Positions 114 to 15,078 of a DNA stretch of 64,000 nucleotides are shown one piece after another. The position numbers were made by a program, and so were the translations under genes. The stretch lies in assembly GCA_963780185.1 (NCBI GenBank), contig CAWABA010000004.1, positions 64,001-128,000 of the forward strand, given 5' to 3'. Source of the stretch: Candidatus Bathyarchaeota archaeon. Its GTDB lineage: Archaea; Thermoproteota; Bathyarchaeia; Bathyarchaeales; Bathycorpusculaceae. Within the stretch, counting starts at the first letter, position 1. Each line of letters starts with the position of its first letter. The notes below the pieces were generated by a model. The model did not search any database, had not been told where the DNA came from, and saw only the letters and a list, made by a program, of their open reading frames with translations.

Positions 114-500
114 TTAGATCCAGGCTGTTTCTATTTCTTTGATTTGCTTGAAGTGTGGGTCGTCTGTAATGCAGACTGCCTTGAGCATAAGTGCTGTGGC
201 GGCGATTATGCTGCCACCCATGGACAAACGGTATTTGTGTCTTAACTCTGCGGAAATTTGGGCAATCTGCTCGTCAACAAGAACCACCTCAAATTCCCCC
301 AGAATACCGGCAATTTGAGTTTTTACCGTTTCTCGGCTTCTCCTTGAAAGTGCAAAGTTATAGAATTCGTGGATTACAACAGCTGATATGTATCTACCTT
401 TTCGGATATTTTGTGACCGCATTTTGTTTAGCAGCGACTTGTTTTCCGAGTAGTAATAGTCTACGAAGAACCTAGTGTCAAAGACTGCTTTGTTCGTCAT
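114..500 (-). CDS. vapC: PIN-domain VapC toxin
   Basis: AVFDT...IHE...LSMGGSIIAATA...ITDD PIN pattern; overlaps the upstream AbrB-type gene. Confidence 0.85.
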   Translation of the reverse strand: MTNKAVFDTRFFVDYYYSENKSLLNKMRSQNIRKGRYISAVVIHEFYNFALSRRSRETVKTQIAGILGEFEVVLVDEQIAQISAELRHKYRLSMGGSIIAATALMLKAVCITDDPHFKQIKEIETAWI

Positions 501-828
501 CTGGGTCTACTTCATGTCTCATTTTGTCAAGTTCTGCTTTCACTTCTTCGACTGTGGCCTGACCTGCGTAAGCTCCAGCCATATCCCAGAAGGTCTTCTT
601 CCTCTTCAAAAGGACACCATCTCCTGTGTCGATTACCTCGAGCTTCGTGCCCTCTTCAATTTGGTATTTTCTGCGAAGCTTGACAGGAATCGTTGTCTGT
701 CCTTTTTTTGTTACAACGACCACGACTTCCTTGACTTTGCTTCTTTTTGGAAAACTGATTTCCTCAAGCCTTATTTCCGATTCTTCCGTCAATGGGCTTT
801 CTGCTGCTTTTGGCTCTAACTTTTCCAA
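478..828 (-). CDS. AbrB/MazE/SpoVT-type antitoxin (true start probably downstream of 828)
   Basis: VTKKGQTTIPVKLRRKYQIEEGTKL swapped-hairpin motif; directly upstream of vapC. Confidence 0.85.
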   Translation of the reverse strand: MEKLEPKAAESPLTEESEIRLEEISFPKRSKVKEVVVVVTKKGQTTIPVKLRRKYQIEEGTKLEVIDTGDGVLLKRKKTFWDMAGAYAGQATVEEVKAELDKMRHEVDPDDEQSSL

Positions 829-2366: not shown

Positions 2367-2480
2367 CGAAATGGCTAAAATTGGCATCCCTTGAAAGTTT
2401 ACGTGGAGAGCTATCCCTTAGAGACTTTACAGAACCCAAAATAGCAACCATTAAAAGTTAGAGTTGCAAAAATAAGCGGT

Positions 2481-2812
2481 TTATTTTTTGCGTATGTTGC
2501 ATTGGAGTACTTTGGGGCAGATTAGGCATTCGTCTTGTGTTAGCATGCTTTCTCCTGGCATGTGGAGTAGGCTGCTGTAGTGGGCGCATTTGGCGGTGAG
2601 TCGAAGACGGTTGGGTATTCGGTGGGTTTGACTTCGATGACTCGGTTTTTTTCGGTGATGAGGTTGAGTTTGCTCATGCAGTAGGGGCAGGCGAAGTGGG
2701 TTTGTCGTGGGATGGTGTTGGTGTCGGTTATGACGGTCGGCTTGTCAAATACTTTTTCGCATCCTTTGTAAGGGCATTTGAGTTTTTGCTCGTGCCCATG
2801 GAAAAGCTGCAC
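2481..2812 (-). CDS. Cys-rich zinc-finger protein with one frameshift near 2596
   Basis: CPYKGC...CPYC; the shifted frame continues AKCAHYSSLLHMPGESMLTQDECLICPKVLQCNIRKK* to 2481. Confidence 0.65.
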
Positions 2813-3091
2813 GTCATTCGCCTCCCATGTTTATTTAACATCGAGTGTAGCAATATTTAATAAACTTTATCGACTAACGCTTCCTCCGTCTAATTGCACA
2901 ACAGAAATACACAAACGCCAAACCCCATAGCGACAAATGCAAAGCCTTTTAGACAATAACCAATCAATACCACATCACAGCCCGTTGAAATTATGCTATT
3001 TATGCAACATTTCACAACAATTATGAACAAATCTCAACCACCCTTATATCGCCTAACGACCCATCAATATCAAAAAAGAACGGTGAAAAAA

Positions 3092-3154
3092 ATGGAAAAA
3101 CCATCCCCAAAAAAAGCAGCCCCAAAAGAAGTCCTGTACTTCCCGCATGTATAG
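3092..3154 (+). CDS. 20-aa micro-ORF MEKPSPKKAAPKEVLYFPHV
   Basis: GGTGA Shine-Dalgarno shortly upstream of ATG3092. Confidence 0.35.
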   Translation: MEKPSPKKAAPKEVLYFPHV

Positions 3155-3164
3155 GTGACATGAA

Positions 3165-3314
3165 ATGTTTGCGGAGACAAGTATGCCCATATTTGTGCTG
3201 TGCACAAGCTCGCTGACGGCAGCCTTCGTGTACTATAATCTGAAATACCGAAAGTTCCTCAAAGAAAACCCAAGCTTAACCAACCCATCCACAGAGCAAA
3301 ACAGAAGGAGGTGA
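3165..3314 (+). CDS. 49-aa single-TM small protein
   Basis: AGGTGA SD; MFAETSMPIFVLCTSSLTAAFVYYNLKYRKFLKE... is a hydrophobic stretch followed by basic residues. Confidence 0.45.
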   Translation: MFAETSMPIFVLCTSSLTAAFVYYNLKYRKFLKENPSLTNPSTEQNRRR

Positions 3315-3430
3315 ACCAGAAGACAAAACGAAAAAATGCAAACACATCAACAAGCCAATTCCGCGCCCACCCGCCCAACAGGAATTTGGCTTCCCCTTTT
3401 TCTTTTTTTTAACGTCAAAGTTTTTATCCT

Positions 3431-4084
3431 CTATGCGAGGACTTTATGGCAAGTGATATTCTTGGTTGAAATTTTGACGGGTAAGATGGTTTCAATAGTA
3501 ACGAAGACCATGTTTCCAATGGTGGATAAGGTGGTTTCTGAATTTGCGAGCTGATAGAAATCTGAAAAACGACTTGGAAGCTCTAAAAAGATGTTTTCCT
3601 CGGTTTTCTTGATGGGTACAACCTCTTTTGAAAGTGATGTGCCATTCCACTCCGCTATTTCCCGATCAGCAACCCCGACGGTTGACCTTGAAAGCGCATA
3701 AACAAATGCTTTTTCGCCCCAAAGGTCAAAGTTTACCATCTCGCGAGGTATCTCAACCTGATTAATCGGTCGTTTCTGGAAGTCCTTTGGGTAAACTGTC
3801 TTGACGAGCACACCTTTTTTCAAATTATGTTTTATTGAGGCTTTGTTTTCGGCTAATAGGCGGTTTACGCTTCCATCTATTTTGCCGTTTGTGCACTGAA
3901 GGTTTTCAGCGATTTCTGAAATTGTTATGCCGTGCTTCTTCATGATTTGCTGCAGGACGGCTGCGTCGGTTGATTGCCCTTTTTTGTGCATTACGACGGG
4001 TGCTCCTGAAAGACGGCTCATATCATCACATTGCCTGTGGAATTGATGAGTGTTAGTTGCTAATAAGCGTTTAGAAGCTTCCAA
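3431..4084 (-). CDS. Winged-helix domain protein with a beta-rich C-terminus (likely start 4021)
   Basis: GITISEIAENLQCTNGKIDGSVNRL HTH. Confidence 0.6.
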   Translation of the reverse strand: MEASKRLLATNTHQFHRQCDDMSRLSGAPVVMHKKGQSTDAAVLQQIMKKHGITISEIAENLQCTNGKIDGSVNRLLAENKASIKHNLKKGVLVKTVYPKDFQKRPINQVEIPREMVNFDLWGEKAFVYALSRSTVGVADREIAEWNGTSLSKEVVPIKKTEENIFLELPSRFSDFYQLANSETTLSTIGNMVFVTIETILPVKISTKNITCHKVLA

Positions 4085-4125
4085 ACGACTATTAAATTAA
4101 CACAAAAAACCCATAAGTCTACGAC

Positions 4126-4374
4126 ATGACCAAGGCAGTGCTCATGAGCCCTACAGCCTACAGGTGGCTACAAAGACACCCATTCGTCTCAGAAGAAGCC
4201 ATAATAGGCATAATCCTAAACTGCCCGACAAGAGAGCGCAAGTACTTTGACGATGAGAGATTCCAAATCACCTTCAAAAGAAGAAAAAACGGCAAATTCG
4301 TAAACATCACACTATGGATACATGAAAGACAGGACTCGTTTTACATAGGCAAAATGCATTCAGAAAAAGCGTAA
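4126..4374 (+). CDS. Small basic hypothetical protein, possibly with a RelE/BrnT-like fold
   Basis: 82 aa; helix-helix followed by beta strands ending ...IGKMH. Confidence 0.5.
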   Translation: MTKAVLMSPTAYRWLQRHPFVSEEAIIGIILNCPTRERKYFDDERFQITFKRRKNGKFVNITLWIHERQDSFYIGKMHSEKA

Positions 4375-4414
4375 GGCAAACTGCCCTTTGAACCAACATT
4401 GTTGGGATTGGGGT

Positions 4415-4431
4415 GTGGAGCCTCGAGCGGG
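4415..4431 (-). repeat. tRNA-Thr 3'-end duplication (att-like copy 3)
   Basis: GTGGAGCCTCGAGCGGG is identical to 6820-6836. Confidence 0.8.
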
Positions 4432-4548
4432 AATTAATCATTTGGGATGTAAAGCACTCTGGAGTTTTGCATATCCGAAGATTTCGTAGAAACCCCAATT
4501 TTATTATTTAGGCGCTGACATAACTGTGAATCAGGGGAAGATTACTGC

Positions 4549-5229
4549 ATGAAGGTTTTCGAAAGACCCGGTCCCGTAAACACTGATAGCGTCATAGATA
4601 TTGCAAGTGAGGCTGCATCCAGAGCTGATTTTGTCGTTGTGGCGTCGGTTACGGGCAGCAGCGCCGTGAAAGTAGCTGAGAAAATACGGGACAAACCCGT
4701 CGTCTGTGTTACCTGTCCTCAAGGCATGTTCTGGCAAGTTAACGAGATGAAAGACGACCTCTTCGCCAGAATCCCTGAACTGAGAAGCCGACGCGACGAC
4801 TGGGTCAACAAAGGCTTAGAAAAGGTTCCCATGTTTGTAACGGAGGAAAACAAAGCCAAGCTGGACAGTTTAGGCGTCAAGATTGTTCGAGGAACCATCC
4901 CCCTGTTTGGTCCAAGCTTCTCCATGAGAACCCACCTCAAAAAAACAACTTCACTGGATGTAATCGCGAAGACGTTGGAGTTGATTTCCACCGGAACGCT
5001 GGTTTGCATGGAAACCGTTCTGATGGCAACCGACGCAGGCGTCATTCCTGAAGAGAAACGGGTTCTTGCCTGTGCAGGAACAGAAATGGGTTTAGACACC
5101 GCGTGGATTCTGAGAAACAGCGCGTCGGCGAACCTGTTTCATCCCGAGAGAGGCTTCAGGTTCGTGGAGCTGCTGGCAAAGCCCGGGGTTGCACTTACTC
5201 CCAAAGTAGACATTAAATACCTAAGATGA
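4549..5229 (+). CDS. Pyruvate-kinase C-terminal-like protein (MTH1675/COG1751 family)
   Basis: FERPGPVNT...VVVASVTGSSA...VCMETVLMATDAG...GTEMGLDTA. Confidence 0.8.
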   Translation: MKVFERPGPVNTDSVIDIASEAASRADFVVVASVTGSSAVKVAEKIRDKPVVCVTCPQGMFWQVNEMKDDLFARIPELRSRRDDWVNKGLEKVPMFVTEENKAKLDSLGVKIVRGTIPLFGPSFSMRTHLKKTTSLDVIAKTLELISTGTLVCMETVLMATDAGVIPEEKRVLACAGTEMGLDTAWILRNSASANLFHPERGFRFVELLAKPGVALTPKVDIKYLR

Positions 5230-5275
5230 ACCGCATAATCCGAAGAGCATTTTTGGGTAAGGCTTAGCCTTGCAA

Positions 5276-5297
5276 AGGTGGAGCCTCGAGCGGGCTT
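5276..5297 (-). repeat. tRNA-Thr 3'-end duplication (att-like copy 2)
   Basis: AGGTGGAGCCTCGAGCGGGCTT is identical to 6818-6839. Confidence 0.85.
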
Positions 5298-5485
5298 TTG
5301 TTTTTATCAGGCACCGGGAGTTAAGGTACCTGTTCGCAGGAAGGGAAGCGGGAGCTATTAGTACACCGTTTAAAGGAAGAAGAAGTTGAAGGACAAGGAA
5401 TCAGCTCATCCGTCTTCTTTTGACAAAATTCACTTCAAGACTTCAACTCAGAAATTGCCTTTTGCCAACTGCTAAAACGACAGTT

Positions 5486-6037
5486 TTACTTGTGATTTGA
5501 AGGCGGCTTCTCGTTTAATTCACGGTATCTTTCCATCGCGTAAGTTACGATTTCAGCTGCTTCACACGCATTCTTCCATGCACGTACTTTCACCCATTTG
5601 TGAGGTTCAAGCCGCTTGTATGTCTCGAAAAACTCTTGAATTTCAACTAGCCGATGCTTATGAACATCGGTAATATCCTTGTAGCCTTCGAAGCGGGCAT
5701 CATTGACAAGCACTGACAGAATCTTTGCGTCAAGCCCTTCTTCATCTTCGATTATTAACGCCCCTATAACGCGGACTTTAACGATACAGCTTGTCGTCAA
5801 AGGAGCATAGCTAAGCACCATTATATCCAATGGGTCTTCGTCATCAAACCATGTTTGAGGAACAAAACCGTATTCTACAGGGAAAACAACCGATGAAGGA
5901 ATAATCCTATCTAAAACGAAACCTTCCCACTTTAAACTGTACTCATACTTATCTCGAGAACCGCTTGAGACTTCAATAACCATATTTAGTTGTTGAGGCG
6001 GGTTATCTCCGGCAGGGATGTCTTTCCAGAAGTTCAT
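5486..6037 (-). CDS. ppa: Family I inorganic pyrophosphatase
   Basis: KYEY...DR...YGFVPQTWFDDEDPLD...DAKIL...FFETYK. Confidence 0.95.
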   Translation of the reverse strand: MNFWKDIPAGDNPPQQLNMVIEVSSGSRDKYEYSLKWEGFVLDRIIPSSVVFPVEYGFVPQTWFDDEDPLDIMVLSYAPLTTSCIVKVRVIGALIIEDEEGLDAKILSVLVNDARFEGYKDITDVHKHRLVEIQEFFETYKRLEPHKWVKVRAWKNACEAAEIVTYAMERYRELNEKPPSNHK

Positions 6038-6105
6038 CTTTTATCAACTTTTACCAAACTCTAATCCAGCGATTTAAACATAACCAACATTAAAAATGGA
6101 AGTGT

Positions 6106-6154
6106 TGGAGGCTCGAGCGGGCTTCGATCCCGCGGCCTGCAGCTTACAGTAGCC
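6106..6154 (-). repeat. tRNA-Thr 3'-half duplication from the anticodon arm to CCA (att-like copy 1)
   Basis: TGGAGGCTCGAGCGGGCTTCGATCCCGCGGCCTGCAGCTTAC matches 6821-6862 with 3 mismatches. Confidence 0.9.
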
Positions 6155-6194
6155 TTATATCGATTTGTATACATATTAAACTAATCGTTTACAG

Positions 6195-6428
6195 GTGTGT
6201 ACTATGGAAACAGAGGTCCTGTCTGTCAGAGTTAAGAAAAGCCTCAAAAAAGAAGCAGAAAGGATGGGTATTGATATAAAAGCTGCTGTAGAAGAGCGTC
6301 TCGAGGAACTTGTGGAGGAAAAGAAAGCGAAAGCCAAAAGACGCGCGGAGGAGCTTCGTCGCGCTATGGGAAACGTTACTGTGGAGGAGTGGGTAAAAGA
6401 CGTCAAAGAGACAAGGCAAGAGATGTAA
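6195..6428 (+). CDS. VapB/CcdA-like ribbon-helix-helix antitoxin (likely start 6204)
   Basis: METEVLSVRVKKSLKKEAERMGIDIK...EEWVKDVKETR. Confidence 0.8.
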   Translation: MCTMETEVLSVRVKKSLKKEAERMGIDIKAAVEERLEELVEEKKAKAKRRAEELRRAMGNVTVEEWVKDVKETRQEM

Positions 6429-6801
6429 ATACCTACTAGACGCATCCTCATTGTACCCCCTACTGCTTTCTGGAGAAGCCTTCGACTTTGAGCAATGTGC
6501 TGTAAGTACCCTGACGGAATATGAATTAGGCAACGTACTTTGGAAAGAAACTAGGAGAAAGAGAATCGACTTCAAGCAGGCATCGCAAACTTTTTCGGAT
6601 GCTCTGTCAGAGCTAAAGAAAATCGGCATCGGCAGTATAGACGATATTTTGGTATTAGCACTGGAGAGAAACCTTACCTTTTACGATGCCTCATATGCTT
6701 ACCTCGCTGAAAGGGAAGATATGAAACTAGTTACCGAAGATGTTGATTTGATTAAGAAATGTAAGTGTGCCATCCACACAAAAGAGATGGAGCCAACTTA
6801 G
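6400..6801 (+). CDS. vapC: PIN-domain VapC toxin; the conserved N-terminus lies upstream of the TTG6451 call, so ACG6400 is the likely start
   Basis: KYLLDASSLYP...EYELGN...LTFYDASY...LVTED. Confidence 0.8.
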   Translation, partial: TSKRQGKRCKYLLDASSLYPLLLSGEAFDFEQCAVSTLTEYELGNVLWKETRRKRIDFKQASQTFSDALSELKKIGIGSIDDILVLALERNLTFYDASYAYLAEREDMKLVTEDVDLIKKCKCAIHTKEMEPT

Positions 6802-6820
6802 CTTGCTTGTTTGAATGAGG

Positions 6821-6897
6821 TGGAGCCTCGAGCGGGCTTCGGTCCCGCGGCCTGCTGCTTACGAGGCAGCCGCTCTACCAGGCTGAGCCATCGAGGC
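6821..6897 (-). tRNA. tRNA-Thr(CGU) with encoded CCA
   Basis: GCCTCGA/TCGAGGC acceptor, GCTC/GAGC D stem, GCTGC-CTCGTAA-GCAGC anticodon arm, GCGGG/CCCGC T stem, discriminator U then CCA; TTTAAAAA TATA-like box upstream (~6933-6940). Confidence 0.93.
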
Positions 6898-7006
6898 GCA
6901 CCGTTTATGTTTGCTAATCAGTGAAGCCCAAGTTTTTAAATGTTTTATCGCAGAGGTGCATGTTGAAAAGCGCCATTCCACATAGAAAAGTGCATGTGTC
7001 GAATGT

Positions 7007-7194
7007 ATGTTGAAGTATGTTGTTTCATATTTGGAGCCTATTTGGTGCATCTAGTTGACGGAGGGGGTAGATGTTGCATTCAAACATAAACGGGGTTCAG
7101 GCGCTGTTCTTTGTGTCTATTTGGCTCATCTAGATGTCCCTATTTGGATCCTATAGAAAACCGTAGGGAGGCTGGGTACGAAAAAATAAAAACC
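7007..7194 (+). repeat. ~190-bp non-coding dispersed repeat, copy A
   Basis: Reverse complement of 14559-14748. Confidence 0.9.
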
Positions 7195-7312
7195 CGACGG
7201 GGAAGACACCGATTTACGTGACCAAAACTCAGCCCAAACACGGCTTAAGCGTCAATCTTAAAAGGTTTAACCAGCTTATCTTGATTTGTAGTTTTAATTC
7301 AGAGGCGATTAC

Positions 7313-8338
7313 GTGAGCAACGAAAAAGCAGGAAAAACTCCAGCCCGAGACGGCGCAGGTATCGGCGAACGAAGGATAATTGACATTATCGCCAGCCACC
7401 TTGAAGCCATGCCTAACCTGCCCGTGCCCTTCGGAGACGACGTGTCCGCCGTCAACATAGATGAAAAACAGGTTGCCGTGCTCAAAACGGACATGCTTGT
7501 AGGCAAAACCGACGTGCCCCCAAATATGAGCCTTTGGCAGGCCTCACGCAAAGCAGTTGTCATGAACATCAGCGACTTCGCTTCCAAAGGTGTGCAGCCA
7601 ACAGCCGCGCTTGTATCCCTGGGGTTACCTAAAGGCTTCATGCAAAAAGACATTGAAGAAATCGCGCGGGGACTAAACGCGGGTGCAAGAGAATATGGGG
7701 CATACATCGTCGGCGGAGACACGGGTGAAGCCTCAGACCTCATAATTTCAATCAGCCTCTACGGTACAGCAGAGAAAACGAGCCTGATACTGCGCAACGG
7801 AGCTAAGCCAGGAGACGTTTTGGCTGTCACAGGGTTCTTCGGCAAATCAGCCGCTGGACTACGGTTGCTGATGGATAACTGTTCAGCGTCTGCTCATCTT
7901 CGGGATGTTTTGCTTGGGGCGGTTTGCATGCCTAAGGCGCGGCTAAAAGAAGGATTAGCCCTTAGCCGTTCGGGTGCAGCGTCAGCTTCGATCGATTCAA
8001 GCGACGGCTTAGCTTGGAGCCTGCATGAAATCGCCAAAATGAGCAACGTCGGCTTTGTCGTTAACACCGTTCCCGTCTCCGACGAAGTTAGACGGTTCGC
8101 GGAATTCAACCATCTCAACCCCACGGAACTGGCACTTTACGGCGGCGAAGAATACGAACTAGTCGTAACCATCAAGCCAGACAAATGGGTCGAAGCGGAA
8201 GACGCAATTGAAGCCGTCGGCGGATGCCTCCTGCCCATTGGAAAAGCAACAAGGGACACGCAGATGCTCTTAGACGTTGACGGCACGAAGCGCCCTGTTG
8301 AAGCCCGCGGCTGGGAGCATTTCAAGAGCAAGATTTAG
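7313..8338 (+). CDS. thiL: Thiamine-monophosphate kinase
   Basis: GDDVS, KTDMLV, MNISDFASKG, GGDT, DSSDGL, GGEEYEL, GWEHF. Confidence 0.95.
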   Translation: MSNEKAGKTPARDGAGIGERRIIDIIASHLEAMPNLPVPFGDDVSAVNIDEKQVAVLKTDMLVGKTDVPPNMSLWQASRKAVVMNISDFASKGVQPTAALVSLGLPKGFMQKDIEEIARGLNAGAREYGAYIVGGDTGEASDLIISISLYGTAEKTSLILRNGAKPGDVLAVTGFFGKSAAGLRLLMDNCSASAHLRDVLLGAVCMPKARLKEGLALSRSGAASASIDSSDGLAWSLHEIAKMSNVGFVVNTVPVSDEVRRFAEFNHLNPTELALYGGEEYELVVTIKPDKWVEAEDAIEAVGGCLLPIGKATRDTQMLLDVDGTKRPVEARGWEHFKSKI

Positions 8339-8891
8339 CTTTGCAGTCAAGCAAATAATTGATGATTGTAATACACGAAGCCGCCAAATAAGGCTGTTTG
8401 CCTAAACTGATTTTTTCGCCAAACCTGAGGGCGAACCTTTCCACGTTTCTTGGCAACCCAACATGGTCACCAAGAACGAAAACGGCGTCGTCCGCAAGCT
8501 CGATGTCAGCAACGTTTTTTCCGCCCTCTTCCAAAACGTAGACACGATGAGTCTGGGCTTCAGATTTTAGCAAGGCTTCAAAACTTGTCTTGTCGACGCT
8601 GATGCCTGGGTGAGATTTGCCAGCGATAGTTTTTCTTAGGATTTGCTGCCATGTGTCAACGTCTGTTCGCACATCATAAAGTTGTTCTCCGTCGATTTTT
8701 ATGTGCAGCGGAGGATTCGGAGGGCCATTCAAAACGGCGTGGAAGAACACGTCTCTGCGTAAGCCGTGAGAAAGGAAAAGGCTGGTTACTATGCATTCGT
8801 ATGCGATGTCTAAGCGTCCTGCATCGTGGAGGTTGTGGAATGACGGGTCGGTTTTTCCTAAACGTGAGAACAGGATGAATTGTCTTGGCAA
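8322..8891 (-). CDS. trmY: tRNA (pseudouridine54-N1)-methyltransferase, SPOUT family
   Basis: AGRLD...LFLSHGLRRDV...FVLGDHVG...ISLG...CITIINYLLD. Confidence 0.9.
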   Translation of the reverse strand: MPRQFILFSRLGKTDPSFHNLHDAGRLDIAYECIVTSLFLSHGLRRDVFFHAVLNGPPNPPLHIKIDGEQLYDVRTDVDTWQQILRKTIAGKSHPGISVDKTSFEALLKSEAQTHRVYVLEEGGKNVADIELADDAVFVLGDHVGLPRNVERFALRFGEKISLGKQPYLAASCITIINYLLDCKAKSCS

Positions 8892-8966
8892 CGGGGTTCA
8901 CATTTTACTGCTGTGCAAACTTGCTTTAAAGCACTTCCCAAATAGCCTGCTTTTGACTTACAGATT

Positions 8967-9398
8967 TTAGACAATTACGTGCGTAAGGACAAGGATGTTG
9001 TTTACTACAACCGCGGCAAGGAACACAACGATAGTTAAGTAAGCCATCTTTAGCGTTTTCAAAGCAATTCTGAAAGAGTTGGAGCTGTGGTCAGAAGTCC
9101 GCATTAGCGTTTTTTGCGCCAGAACAAAAATCAAACCAACGGAAATTGTCACAACTAATTTTATAACCACAAAACCCGACAGATTAGTGCTAACTAACCC
9201 TGCAAGTACAGGATTCAATTCTCTTGTGCCGAAAAACACAGCGCCCACGACCGTGGTAAGGCAATCCATTGAGCCCATAAAAATCAGAAGCAAACAACTT
9301 GAAAAACTTTGGGGACTCTGCAAAACTTTTTCTCCTTTCCCATTCAGAAAACTAACGCTACAGTTGAGAGACGTACTCGAAAAGTCAAGGGTTGCCAA
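8967..9398 (-). CDS. DUF5658-like membrane protein
   Basis: MGSMDCLTT...G.RELNPV motif, 3 TM segments, VVVNN. Confidence 0.7.
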   Translation of the reverse strand: MATLDFSSTSLNCSVSFLNGKGEKVLQSPQSFSSCLLLIFMGSMDCLTTVVGAVFFGTRELNPVLAGLVSTNLSGFVVIKLVVTISVGLIFVLAQKTLMRTSDHSSNSFRIALKTLKMAYLTIVVFLAAVVVNNILVLTHVIV

Positions 9399-9550
9399 AA
9401 TCAGTGGTCTTCGGCTACAGACTTAGAATGCGTGTAGCTTTCAGCATAGTTATTGTTGAATGTGTTTTTATATGTTCACTGTTTCGAGTGATGCAATAGG
9501 GTGGTATGGGTAACTTGGAAACTTTGACAAGTTAAAGCCGTGCTACTTGT

Positions 9551-9949
9551 TTAGACTAGAACTCTCTTGATTATCGATGAGTGATTCACGGTTTTTTCCA
9601 TGAACACGCTGATTTTGTTGCCGCCGATCTTCATGAAAAGCACTTTCAGGGTTTTGCCTTCAACCAAAGCGCTTTCAATTTCGGAAACACTTAGCTGTTT
9701 CGCAATATCCAAGCAGGACTCGTACAGTTGATAGGACAGAAAGGCGTATTGGCTTATTTTGTCGCTTTCAGCTAAATCCAGCACAGCCGAAGTGTTGCCT
9801 CTCATGATGTAGCCTAATACACCGTTGAGTTTCCGTATTTCAGCCAAGCTCGCGCCTAAACTTGCGTAAGCGGGGTCTTCGCCGTCTACGGCTGTTATCG
9901 CAACCACGTTAGTCAACGCCGTTTCCGTTTGCCTGACGGTTGTGGTCAA
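9551..9949 (-). CDS. Roadblock/LC7 domain protein
   Basis: LAEIRKLNGVLGYIMR...IESALVEGKTLKVLFMKIGGNKISVFMEK. Confidence 0.7.
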   Translation of the reverse strand: MTTTVRQTETALTNVVAITAVDGEDPAYASLGASLAEIRKLNGVLGYIMRGNTSAVLDLAESDKISQYAFLSYQLYESCLDIAKQLSVSEIESALVEGKTLKVLFMKIGGNKISVFMEKTVNHSSIIKRVLV

Positions 9950-10770
9950 TTTTTCGCCTCCGACGACGTGGGGATAACGGGCTTAACCATCACCAGTTTG
10001 CCTTCGCCTGTGCGCAAAGTCTGAAGAATCCTTTCAGGAATCTGAATTACCCCCTTCGCCTTGCCATCTGCCTCGCGTATAGGCTTGAATTTACACATGA
10101 CTGATTTGCCCTCTAAGGTTTCAACGTTCACCAGCAAAATTTCCCTGTCACCGTAAAGGTCGCTCCACTTGGCTACGACGTCGGCGTCAACCCGCACCAT
10201 GTCCGAAGCAACCAGCAACCCCCCGATTTTCTCAACCATAAACTGGTTCACAGGCGGCTTAGGAAAAACCTCTTCGGGAGGTGAGGGCGACGTGTCTGTA
10301 AATTGATCCGTTAACGTAGGTTCTTCAGGCGGCTGAACGGTTTCTTCAACCTGTTTAACCCCAGACGCAGCAACGTCTGATGATGGGTTGTCGATGCTTG
10401 CGGGAGAAACTTGATCCAGAAGCCTGATGATGGTTGGCACGATAACGCAGGTTAACGCTTTAACCATTTTTTCATCTGCCGCCCGAGAAGAAACGGTTGC
10501 TAAGTAGCGGCTGTTGGTGGATGTTATGTCTAGTTGGCTGCTTACGCCTTGGATAGTTAGGTTTTCTACGCCGCCTATGGCTGCCGCTTGGTTGGCTATT
10601 TCGTCGTAGGCGTCTGCGAGTTTTTTTGCTTGGTCCTCGGCTACGTCGTCTTCGTTGGCAGCTAAGATTTGGCCGTCTTTTTTGAAAATTATGGCTTTGG
10701 TCAGTTCTGGGCTGATGTTTCGAAATTCGGCTAGAACTGTCTGCAGCGTGGTTGAGGAGGCTTGGGTCAC
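9946..10770 (-). CDS. Roadblock/LC7 domain + Pro/Thr/acidic linker + beta-barrel-like C-terminal domain
   Basis: LAEFRNISPELTKAIIFKKDGQILA...GVENLTIQG roadblock pattern; GTG10770 avoids overlap with the upstream gene. Confidence 0.65.
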   Translation of the reverse strand: MTQASSTTLQTVLAEFRNISPELTKAIIFKKDGQILAANEDDVAEDQAKKLADAYDEIANQAAAIGGVENLTIQGVSSQLDITSTNSRYLATVSSRAADEKMVKALTCVIVPTIIRLLDQVSPASIDNPSSDVAASGVKQVEETVQPPEEPTLTDQFTDTSPSPPEEVFPKPPVNQFMVEKIGGLLVASDMVRVDADVVAKWSDLYGDREILLVNVETLEGKSVMCKFKPIREADGKAKGVIQIPERILQTLRTGEGKLVMVKPVIPTSSEAKN

Positions 10771-10790
10771 CTTTGCTGCCTGCCTCTGGG

Positions 10791-11216
10791 TTATGTTATT
10801 TTGAATAGGATTCGCTCTGGGATGCCTTCGTCCTGCAACACGAGGTACCGTAGTCCTTCGGTGTCGCCGAGTTGATCCAGCCACTTTAATGCTTCCCGCA
10901 CTTTCTGCAGCACCAACAGCCGCTCCTGGTAGCTGCGCACGACCGCTTCTATGGCGGTTAACTCGTGGAATGCGTTGGCGTCAAGAACGATGTTTAGGGT
11001 GCCGACTGTGATTTCGCTTGGGTTCTCCGCGGTTGCTTTTTTGCCCGCCAGCTTCATCACGACTTCGCGAACCTTCTTTGACTTCTCAGCCAAAGTGCGA
11101 ATCTCATCCAAACGACGCAGGTACTCACCTAAGACACTTTTGGTCTCAGACAATTCCTTGTCGAGGGCATCCGCTATTGCCTGCGCTGAATTGTATTCTT
11201 GTATTTGAGTTACCAT
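10791..11216 (-). CDS. Coiled-coil hypothetical protein (helix-hairpin-helix)
   Basis: Two long amphipathic helices flank SEITVGTLNIVLD; GGAGGGT SD. Confidence 0.75.
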   Translation of the reverse strand: MVTQIQEYNSAQAIADALDKELSETKSVLGEYLRRLDEIRTLAEKSKKVREVVMKLAGKKATAENPSEITVGTLNIVLDANAFHELTAIEAVVRSYQERLLVLQKVREALKWLDQLGDTEGLRYLVLQDEGIPERILFKIT

Positions 11217-11313
11217 ACTTTTTTACCCTCCAAGAGGAAACGAAAGAGAAAAGGAAAAAGGTGGTGAAGCAAATTTCACCTTACCCCCAATTTTCAAACT
11301 AAAGCTTGCGCGC

Positions 11314-11800
11314 TTATGGACCAGTGTATGATGCTTGGGTTGTAAGTGTAGTTGCCTTTTGCAGTCATCAGTGAGATTGTGTACTGTGCACTGTTGCTAG
11401 CGAACGGAGTGTCGGTTGTACGTCGTGAGTGTCTACTGCAGCTGCTTTGACGTAATTGGCAACTTGATTAGGCCAAGCGTCATGCCAGTGCACTGGTAGC
11501 GCAGCCTATTATGCTGTTTTTCCATCGACAGTTACTAGAGTTTATCGTGACTGACGCTGAACCTGTGTTAATTGATAGAGCAATAACAGCTGACCATCCT
11601 CCGCCTTCAGTGTTGGCTAATACTACGTTTGTTATTTTTGCCTGCTCCGAATTACCCATGAAACCGATAGTTAATGCTCCCATCCATGCTGCTACGACAA
11701 CGCTGACTGCTACGGTGACGGCGATCAGTATGATTGTTGCGATTACGGGGCTTAGTGCTTTTGCGCTTTTCCTAAATTTCCTGAGTTTCTTGAAATTCAA
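11314..11800 (-). CDS. Archaeal type IV pilin/archaellin-N domain protein with several indels in the C-terminal half
   Basis: Class III signal KKLRKFRKSAKA|LSPVIATIILIAVTVAVSVVVAAW; fragments VTVDGKTA, QYTISLMTAKGN and TQASYTGP* fall in different frames. Confidence 0.8.
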
Positions 11801-11857
11801 TTTGTTTTTTACCCTCCTTTGGGTTTCTGAATATACGTTCCACGCACAATGCTAATA

Positions 11858-11883
11858 AATATTATGACTTAATACATAATATT
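11858..11883. promoter_or_regulatory. Palindromic operator upstream of the pilin gene
   Basis: AATATTATG-N8-CATAATATT, a perfect 9-bp inverted repeat in the promoter region. Confidence 0.55.
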
Positions 11884-12006
11884 ATAGATATGTTAAACAC
11901 AACTACAGCCAGCAACCAAAACCCTCATCTACAGCCGCATCTGTCTGACGATTTATTGTGTAAAAAAGATGAAGGGCGAGTACAAAAAAACTTTGTGAAT
12001 TTACAC

Positions 12007-14558: not shown

Positions 14559-14748
14559 GGTTTTTATTTTTTCGTACCCAGCCTCCCTACGGTTTTCTAG
14601 AGGATCCAAATAGGGACATCTAGATGAGCCAAATAGACACAAAAACCACCCGCAGGGCACCTCGTCTATGTTTGAATGCAACGTCTACCCCCTCCGTCAA
14701 CTAGATGCACCAAATATGCTCCAACTATGAAACAACATACTTCAACAT
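14559..14748 (-). repeat. ~190-bp non-coding dispersed repeat, copy B
   Basis: Reverse complement of 7007-7194. Confidence 0.9.
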
Positions 14749-15078
14749 GGGAAAGGATGCGCAAAATTGTATGTTGAATTGTTGTTTTTAGCATGTAAAT
14801 CGCTGTTTTTTCATGGAAGAACCGATGAAAAAGGAAGTATGTTTCGCCTTTTTTGGGTCAGCGTTATTTGACGTTTTCTCACAGCGTAAGCTCGAAGCCG
14901 TCGCCTCACATCATCCCGCCATCAATGTGGGTCTGCGGAAATTTATTCATTTTGTTGCTGAAAAGCAACCGAGGAAAAACTGGTTTTCCCTTTGGCCTTG
15001 ACATTTCTTGCGGTGGTATGTGGGAGTTGGCTTTAATAATTTCTTTTCCCATTGCGAGGTATTCAAGAGGTCACTTAA

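Follow-up and report, generated by a model that had tools for sequence, protein, structure and literature searches.

How does a tRNA gene come to be followed by a row of single genes, each closed off by another copy of the tRNA's own 3′ end? The question is raised by a 64-kb stretch of contig C4 (hereafter, the window) of a Candidatus Bathyarchaeota metagenome-assembled genome (MAG; 2.75 Mb in 13 contigs; the source genome, or G000), in which the gene for tRNA-Thr(CGU) is trailed by three partial copies of itself. The intervals hold a putative vapBC toxin-antitoxin (TA) module, a family I inorganic pyrophosphatase gene (ppa), and an MTH1675-like gene, and beyond the last copy lies a further unit, termed S/W, consisting of a helix-turn-helix (HTH) protein gene and a small open reading frame (ORF). 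We favor site-specific tandem accretion, at a tRNA hotspot, of integrase-less mini-elements resembling cis-mobilizable elements (CIMEs), with decay as a co-factor, and give this explanation a probability of roughly 0.55.

tRNA-Thr(CGU), called with ARAGORN on the window and with RF00005, is the only tRNA that ARAGORN finds there, and its 3′ end faces lower coordinates. The 17-mer GTGGAGCCTCGAGCGGG was searched over the whole 64 kb at up to three mismatches and compared with 100 shuffles. Four matches were found on the + strand, at 4415-4431 (0 mismatches), 5278-5294 (0), 6105-6121 (2), and 6820-6836 (0), against 0.04 expected, and four were reached in 0 of 100 shuffles. A repeat search likewise recovered a 22-nt family at 863/827/715-nt spacing and a 51-nt pair (6097-6147 vs 6812-6862). 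The last of the four matches belongs to the tRNA itself; the others, called copies B, C, and D with increasing distance from it, all lie downstream in the same orientation as the tRNA, confirming by direct reading what the original prediction had proposed. That prediction had placed copy B at 6106-6154; a copy with three mismatches does exist there, ending at 6147, so the proposed end was about 7 nt too far.

Each interval between copies is a unit of 0.67-0.85 kb with one gene or operon, intact in all three consecutive units, and with 63-255 nt of non-coding sequence; gene orientation is mixed, both strands being used (Table 1). In E3, the unit next to the tRNA, vapB (6195-6428) is followed by a PIN/vapC frame that is open from 6397, has its first canonical start at 6451, and ends at 6801. 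The antitoxin is ribbon-helix-helix/CcdA-like (23.3 bits, cut-off 22.4) and the PIN domain scores 29.6 bits (cut-off 23.6). By its layout, a small DNA-binding antitoxin gene and then a PIN-domain gene, E3 is classed as a type II TA module of the VapBC kind with putative activity, and a four-genome alignment shows it to be homologous end to end with units at the same tRNA in G087, G099, and G004. E2 consists of ppa with about 60 nt of its own upstream region and, on the 3′ side, 188 nt for which no homologue was found among the genomes searched; the ppa product matches PF00719 at full length (profile positions 1-152 of 153; 167.4 bits, cut-off 23.5). E1 holds the MTH1675-like gene. The HTH protein of S/W has weak Sta1/Lrs14-type matches below cut-off, and the 82-aa ORF beside it matches nothing in Pfam, NCBIfam, or PHROGs and has sub-threshold leads only in Atlas (a DUF4258 cluster at rank 11, score 0.84). 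These assignments agree with the gene content read earlier from the sequence: VapBC, ppa, and an MTH1675-like gene, with a winged-HTH/small-protein pair beyond the last copy.

That the array lacks an integrase, as also proposed, is borne out by a PF00589 search of the genome, which gave three matches, all on contig C7 and none on C4; no resolvase-type recombinase was found in the genome. An SSV-type split int(N)/int(C) beside the copies was sought with the catalytic-domain model only, and gave no PF00589 signal in the array. Because the units are tiny, carry one gene or operon each with its own upstream region, and include no recombinase, we regard them as integrase-less, CIME-like elements; like CIMEs, they hold no integration or transfer genes and retain flanking attachment (att) copies.

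The vapC start in E3 is unusual. Between window positions 6421 and 6453 there is no ATG, GTG, or TTG ahead of the conserved PIN N-terminal motif KYLLDASS, an in-frame motif that overlaps the stop of vapB (ATGTAAATAC...). G087, G099, and G004 preserve this start-less arrangement, with synonymous changes, and in an unrelated vapBC at tRNA-Lys(CUU) (G000 C5:48020-48090) the PIN N-terminus likewise overlaps the vapB stop and has no canonical start. Since the overlap is kept both in relatives and in the unrelated unit, the sequences suggest non-canonical initiation or re-initiation of vapC and not a lesion.

The setting of the array was compared in two samples: 120 genomes of the genus (G-numbers, including G000) and 43 loci found with the neighboring ThiL-like protein (ThiL-anchored loci), whose record titles are mostly Candidatus Bathyarchaeota/Bathyarchaeia MAGs; L-numbers denote fetched loci. 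The two samples overlap in part and their counts are not additive. The order ThiL-like gene, tRNA-Thr(CGU), small Cys-rich gene, tRNA-Pro(UGG) is widely kept across both, and tRNA-Thr(CGU) was detected in 34 of the 43 ThiL-anchored loci. Empty sites, with about 110-140 nt from the tRNA to the Cys-rich gene, are present in G021, G022, and G024, and the site is also unoccupied in many of the more remote ThiL-anchored loci. From tRNA-Pro to tRNA-Thr the distance is 576 nt in G022 vs 15,585 nt in the source genome, and the sequence directly past the CCA end differs among 16 aligned genomes. Given the empty sites and the differing post-CCA sequence, the 3′ end of tRNA-Thr(CGU) is evidently an insertion hotspot, and by the same comparison about 4 kb has been inserted between the tRNA and the Cys-rich gene in the source genome. 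No decayed att copy was found there in the stretch from the Cys-rich gene to S/W, where the alignment score was below the shuffle mean.

Beyond the Cys-rich gene, a second pair, PIN and MazE-AbrB-like (window 114-828, - strand), and a LURP-one-related protein (953-1489) both recur in relatives' hotspots. A dispersed repeat resembling a miniature inverted-repeat transposable element (MITE), about 190 nt long and containing CTAGATG..CCAAATAG motifs, occurs at 7007-7194, between tRNA-Thr(CGU) and the ThiL-like gene, and again at 14559-14749; it gives 23 blastn hits in the source genome and many in G088, G099, and G019. Inversions with one breakpoint at tRNA-Thr(CGU) are present in L184, L152, L176, and L106 (G088). 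L184 has two inverted copies of the tRNA (~5751 and ~13665), each with vapBC and the Cys-rich-gene region, around the ThiL segment; an inverted tRNA and Cys-rich gene lie about 6 kb past ThiL in L152 and L176; and the inversion in G088 begins about 380 nt upstream of the tRNA.

The relatives show that the units are modular. Reading away from the tRNA, G019 has S/W, a decayed repeat of about 30 nt, and the Cys-rich gene; G099 has 260 nt, a 21-nt copy, vapBC, a 48-nt copy, and S/W; G087 has vapBC, a 48-nt copy, TauE and DUF1634 genes, a decayed copy, and the Cys-rich gene; G004 has vapBC and then a contig end; and G088 has S/W, a 23-nt copy, the MTH1675-like gene with a split M29 peptidase, a copy of about 33 nt, and a HEPN/MNT pair. 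S/W thus adjoins the tRNA in G019 and G088 and the 48-nt copy in G099, and the MTH1675-like unit lies on opposite sides of S/W in G088 and the source genome. The att-bounded layout of the source genome recurs in G087, G088, and G099, and a pattern scan of the 120 genus genomes found at least five (G000, G020, G087, G088, and G099) with two or more same-strand copies within 3 kb. Comparison of tRNA-Thr(CGU) loci across MAGs, the check first suggested for this locus, reveals units that recur alone or in another order. Aligned with its G088 counterpart, S/W of the source genome shows 94.5% identity (928 nt) and the MTH1675-like block 91.6% (758 nt; the gene likewise 91.6%), as against 76-83% for the hotspot flanks and 78-88% for 20 kb of neighboring core. 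Because the identity of both units exceeds that of flanks and core, the alignment suggests that units are exchanged independently of the backbone.

The ends of the copies fall into two classes. Copies of 48 nt that begin in the anticodon loop are present in G087 and G099, and copy B derives from one: it began as a 48-nt copy running from the anticodon loop to CCA and, measured against G087, has since lost about 33 nt at its inner edge. The T-loop class comprises five copies of 16-23 nt, namely C, D, G099 f21, G088 f23, and G020 f16. According to an excerpt of 10.1101/2020.11.02.365908, tRNA-targeting integrases use two symmetric sublocations, the anticodon loop and the T-loop. That the repeats shorten with distance is not a matter of age or decay. 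The two crossover classes account for the lengths instead: the vapBC event, whose crossover lay at the anticodon loop, left a 48-nt copy, and the distal events, crossing over at the T-loop, left copies of 16-23 nt. With units bounded by the tRNA or a direct 3′ repeat, boundaries at known sublocations, and an unoccupied site in relatives, the array fits the pattern of tandem accretion, and the proposal that each interval is a separate integrase-less unit of 0.67-0.85 kb, with the copies as integration scars at the tRNA 3′ end, stands. The same two classes, together with units that occur separately and reordered in relatives, speak against the copies framing deletion remnants of one large element.

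Copy D adjoins the end of S/W, the place held in G019 by the tRNA 3′ end. The junction to its right (4416-4459) runs from 16 nt of att through an 11-12-nt spacer into an inverted T-arm-like stretch. G087 has a homologous junction (L104 ~5587-5630), next to a decayed att, and IMG/VR contig L122, which also carries large ORFs, has a look-alike (~11300-11364); the 38-nt junction has no match at up to three mismatches in the 119 other genus genomes. The flanks of copies B and D share a AACCAACATT motif, which may be chance, and a resemblance of the copy-B flank to the tRNA flanks of G001 and G006 was rejected as A-rich sequence only.

Evidence that such units move comes from a sister unit. In the source genome, tRNA-Thr(GGU) is followed by a 0.55-kb HicA/HicB unit (C7:4511-5064) closed by a 35-nt copy, and DNA of this unit is present in 38 of the 120 genus genomes. 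Thirty HicAB loci were fetched: 12 adjoin tRNA-Thr(GGU), four tRNA-Thr(CGU) (G003, G046, G096, and G130), and one tRNA-Thr(UGU) (G020), while three lie 338-1230 nt from a tRNA-Thr and ten have no upstream tRNA within 1.5 kb. At the three tRNA-Thr genes the unit keeps a similar extent of 0.52-0.57 kb, and homology covers most of the stretch from att to att. G003 and G046 (CGU) and G020 (UGU) have a hybrid distal scar, in which a decayed GGU-type anticodon/T arm is joined to a CGU- or UGU-type acceptor end; G130 and G096 have no recognizable scar. As read from these sequences, the hybrid is the expected product of an element-borne GGU-type att recombining with a different tRNA-Thr gene, and would be hard to obtain by independent trimming. 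Since HicAB occurs at three tRNA-Thr genes with hybrid att scars, mini-units can move, and their movement in trans is plausible; to this extent the earlier idea of capture by an integrase acting in trans is supported, the enzyme and its action in trans being our inference.

Two relatives carry att copies of unusual length. In L105 (G087; 5849-6525) nothing but HicAB separates two identical full-length tRNA-Thr(GGU) genes, which are 523 nt apart, so that the att copy is a whole tRNA, and in L163 a near-full-length pseudo-tRNA-Thr closes a different vapC-like unit at tRNA-Thr(CGU).

A genome-wide look for other tRNA-end arrays was another check proposed at the outset. With the 40 intron-less tRNA genes of the source genome as queries, and counting fragments that include the 3′ end and lie downstream within 20 kb, 15 same-strand fragments were recovered at 11 of the 40 genes, against two matches on the opposite strand. 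The genome holds five further mini-units, HicAB and four at other tRNAs (Table 1). At tRNA-Gly(CCC) (G000 C1:11551-14314) a 35-nt copy of the 5′ part lies 1.3 kb upstream and a 56-nt copy of the 3′ part 1.3 kb downstream, which suggests insertions on both sides. A tRNA-Leu-like 3′ fragment (G000 C9:14820-14893; RF00005, 21 bits) recurs about 640 nt upstream of ppa in G012 (L094 7325-7364) and also on one metagenome contig (L193 1-29); it may represent an unusual tRNA that escaped detection, or a further att scar.

Table 1. Parts of the tRNA-Thr(CGU) array and its anchor genes in the window, followed by mini-units at other tRNA genes of the source genome
Feature	Position in window	Strand	Content or evidence
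Small Cys-rich gene, backbone anchor	2540-2812	-	Synteny
Unit S/W	3431-4414	.	HTH protein 3431-4084 (-) and 82-aa ORF 4126-4374 (+)
Att copy D	4415-4431	-	17 nt exact: 16 nt of tRNA and 1 past CCA; boundary at T-stem/T-loop junction
Junction motif right of copy D	4432-4459	.	12-nt spacer, then inverted T-arm-like stretch
Unit E1, MTH1675-like gene	4432-5275; gene 4549-5229	+	PDB 1t57, 8.1e-19
Att copy C	5276-5297	-	22 nt exact: 19-20 nt of tRNA and AGG past CCA; boundary inside T-loop
Unit E2, ppa (family I inorganic pyrophosphatase)	5298-6104; ppa 5486-6037	-	PF00719, 2.7e-49
Att copy B	6105-6147	-	42-43 nt, from just 3′ of the anticodon to CCA, 3 mismatches
Unit E3, vapBC module	6148-6820	+	Pfam CcdA 8.3e-5, PIN 1.1e-6; 4-genome alignment
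tRNA-Thr(CGU), intact target gene (attL side)	6821-6897	-	ARAGORN; RF00005 57.9 bits
AIR-synthase-related (ThiL-like) gene, anchor on tRNA 5′ side	7313-8338	+	Pfam AIRS/AIRS_C; synteny
Mini-unit at tRNA-Lys(CUU)			vapBC; 24-nt copy
Mini-unit at tRNA-Leu(CAG)			Membrane protein and HicB; 32-nt copy
Mini-unit at tRNA-Ser(GCU)			Fic; 44-nt copy
Mini-unit at tRNA-Gly(CCC)			AAA_14/DUF4143 ATPase; 56-nt copy

The presence of ppa had been read as capture of a housekeeping-type gene, a view that the wider comparison does not sustain. The gene is the genome's only family I pyrophosphatase, and a membrane H+-PPase is also present. In a first sample ppa was found in 9 of 24 genus relatives, and by a count of listed DNA matches in roughly half of 119 others; across 10 genomes it occupies at least six different contexts, and it was not found in G088, G099, G019, G087, or G020. 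Because of the H+-PPase, this patchy distribution, and the varied contexts, ppa is better seen, from its genomic occurrence, as an accessory, wandering gene. Its homology to other loci covers the coding sequence and, in some genomes, about 60 nt upstream, ending 8-10 nt from copy B. The best match is 79% in nucleotides within the genus and 88% in amino acids in JGI metagenomes. None of the 10 best genus ppa loci has a tRNA or tRNA fragment within 1.5 kb, and none of 80 metagenome ppa loci has the tRNA-Thr 16-mer at up to two mismatches; in L190 a tRNA-Ala lies 745 nt upstream of ppa, with no repeat.

How might the array have been assembled? We propose that tRNA-targeting tyrosine-type integrases would recombine at the 3′ end of tRNA-Thr(CGU), each insertion rebuilding the target and leaving a duplicate from the crossover point to CCA. 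Crossover at the anticodon loop would give the vapBC unit and copy B (48 nt), and crossover at the T-loop the ppa and MTH1675-like units with copies C and D (16-23 nt). The units may have arrived as small circles on which an integrase from another locus acted in trans. Small deletions have trimmed the array since. The obvious candidate helper is a 403-aa tyrosine recombinase (C7:14742-15950), the genome's only intact non-Xer-like one, which lies in a 14.7-kb element at tRNA-Thr(GGU) that is bounded by a 23-nt T-loop-class copy and stands in tandem with the HicAB unit.

For the order of events, the relatives favor S/W first and vapBC, at the tRNA, second, with the internal copy B receiving the MTH1675-like and ppa units last, each of which would have left a short copy on its distal side. 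This order is proposed because vapBC and its 48-nt copy adjoin S/W in G099, and, until a deletion, did so in L184 as well, whose flanks (85-88%) are the closest of all loci, and because vapBC divergence tracks the backbone (e.g., one continuous 85% alignment of window 6150-12000 with L184). Parsimony over the relatives thus suggests the internal 48-nt copy, and not the tRNA itself, as the entry point of the ppa and MTH1675-like units, a view at odds with the original prediction of the tRNA as an attI-like site.

Several observations weigh against accretion of mini-elements as just described. No donor or attP form was found for any of the three units, whether in the genus, in IMG/VR or, for ppa, in JGI metagenomes. 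In IMG/VR a 19-mer of the tRNA end has no exact match; its 16-mer matches 16 contigs, of which one is a tRNA gene, most are identical matches in coding sequence of unrelated high-GC DNA, and only L122, perhaps L121/L124, resemble array junctions, with no integrase seen in the part of L122 read. The candidate helper fits imperfectly: only 13 of 120 genus genomes hold a relative of it at E<=1e-20, the array-bearing G087, G088, and G099 have no match to it, none of its relatives among the matches listed lies near a listed tRNA-Thr(CGU/UGU) 3′ end, and its own att is on tRNA-Thr(GGU), whose acceptor end is unlike that of CGU. Had the insertions all occurred serially at the tRNA itself, the structure would end up the same as after entry into copy B, the order being a matter of parsimony. 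No circle, empty-site variant, or joint was seen over 2400-7500 in four runs of one study, whose fragmentary contigs (word share <=0.21) are uninformative either way, and all compared genomes are MAGs. Finally, decay is documented. Copy B is truncated as described above; in L184 only the last codons of the HTH gene are left, fused to the left end of vapBC, most of S/W and the 48-nt copy having been lost in one deletion; the att-bounded MTH1675-like unit of G088 is 2.1 kb long with its split M29 gene; the 260-nt unit of G099 has no convincing ORF; a broken integrase lies beside tRNA-Leu(UAG) in the source genome; and gene-to-att spacers vary in length and sequence between genomes.

These signs of decay are what a second explanation builds on. 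It holds that each unit goes back to a virus, plasmid, or island, larger and with an integrase of its own, that inserted itself at the tRNA or an att copy and was then pared away by deletions sparing both att copies, TA modules persisting as addictive and other genes by chance or selection. The deletions at L184 and copy B, the G088 and G099 units, and the broken integrase all suit it, as do the over-representation of TA or TA-like genes among the mini-units, the variable DNA without any copy of 14 nt or more after the tRNA in 15 of 15 relatives' loci, and the 32 of 34 loci that lack an extra copy at up to two mismatches. Integrase-less integrated archaeal elements have moreover been ascribed to gene loss after integration, in an excerpt of PMC8371274. 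Trimming would nevertheless have had to leave three consecutive units, each with an intact gene or operon and the little non-coding sequence noted above, and no integrase fragment detectable in the array with PF00589; it would also have to arrive independently at a HicAB unit of constant extent, att carried along, at three tRNA-Thr genes, which is unlikely. We consider trimmed remnants a tenable but rather doubtful account of the units themselves. The refuting alternative raised with the original prediction, deletion remnants, fails in its one-large-element form and holds in that deletional decay does shape the locus. Given the evidence for mini-unit mobility and the observed deletions, small-unit insertion and trimming are both at work.

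Accretion of mini-elements also has a bolder form, in which tRNA 3′ ends and their fragments would be this genus's multi-entry landing pads for single-gene, integrase-less cassettes (TA pairs and metabolic genes like ppa). Rare, transient integrases would insert, excise, and reorder the cassettes in trans, and the whole would amount to an archaeal counterpart in function of the integron, with tRNA fragments in place of attC sites. We entertain this generalization only tentatively and think it less likely than not.

Much less probable is an origin without any integrase, by homologous or illegitimate recombination (e.g., Campbell-type insertion of circularized DNA via the tRNA), local duplication, or MAG assembly artefact. 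Repeats of 17-48 nt could support rare homologous recombination, and inversions with a breakpoint at the tRNA are indeed seen in G088, L152, L176, and L184. Against this, the boundaries fall repeatedly, in independent genomes, at the two canonical integrase sublocations, the unit contents are mutually unrelated, comparable arrays occur in four other assemblies, and repeats this short do not break or chimerize assemblies of 13-contig contiguity. An integron-like platform, as first proposed, with a dedicated integrase, the tRNA as attI-like site, and promoterless attC-bounded cassettes under a common promoter, can practically be set aside: serial short repeat-bounded units whose order varies between genomes do recall one, but no recombinase lies beside the tRNA on contig C4, where the ThiL-like gene flanks it, the intact integrase has no relative near the tRNA-Thr(CGU/UGU) 3′ ends in the genus among the matches listed, the repeats are direct tRNA-end copies and not imperfect palindromes of the attC type, genes lie on both strands, and the vapB and ppa upstream regions are conserved with their genes in other genomes, as expected of genes with promoter regions of their own.

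If mini-units of ~0.6-0.8 kb truly move, the lower size limit of archaeal site-specific integrative elements would be a single gene, and tRNA fragments, usually viewed as dead scars, would be live secondary attachment sites. A gene-by-gene exchange route for TA modules and accessory metabolic genes would then exist in an abundant uncultured sediment and soil lineage and would explain part of the patchy gene content among genomes of the genus. If the units are merely trimmed remnants, the locus is an ordinary, tidy case of island decay at a tRNA hotspot.

Integrons consist of intI and the sites attI and attC, the latter imperfect inverted repeats, with mostly promoterless, co-oriented cassettes behind a common promoter. 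The array resembles them in that short gene units accumulate serially at a chromosomal site and their order can vary between strains; unlike them, it has no intI, attI/attC, or common promoter, its genes are in mixed orientation, and its repeats are tRNA-end copies. Nearer are archaeal elements integrated at tRNA genes, which She et al. reportedly described in 2001 in terms of "gene capture"; these likewise use tRNA 3′ halves as att sites, lose the integrase once trapped, and form single-site arrays. Tandem integration in archaea is described in the excerpts available of PMC6563490 and PMC8371274, and integrase loss in integrated archaeal elements in the latter. The smallest element of the Thaumarchaeota survey, as excerpted from PMC6563490, is 2.6 kb and still has its integrase; the units described here have none and are a third to a quarter of that size.

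Closest in form are bacterial arrays, known to us from partial texts: tandem accretion with CIMEs at tRNA/tmRNA genes, e.g., the ICESt1/ICESt3-related arrays of Streptococcus (PMC5704250), and the tandem ssrA genomic islands of Dehalococcoides, with a T-loop insertion point and a serine recombinase (PMC3146451). As far as these excerpts go, serial direct 3′-end repeats delimit islands of strain-specific content in both, some islands lack integration genes yet keep attL/attR, and att copies are re-used, all as in our reading of the array. Their islands are multi-kb, however, while each unit described here spans 0.55-0.85 kb, a single gene or operon; the host belongs to an uncultured Bathyarchaeia lineage, no helper element lies in the array, and a serine recombinase like that reported for Dehalococcoides was not found in the source genome. 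Keyword searches of open-access text found no description of such arrays in Bathyarchaeia. The array is, in form, a known kind of genome patchwork in unusual miniature, set apart by its single-gene units, by an apparent tRNA fragment serving as secondary target, and by the same mini-units occurring at different tRNAs and positions within one genus.

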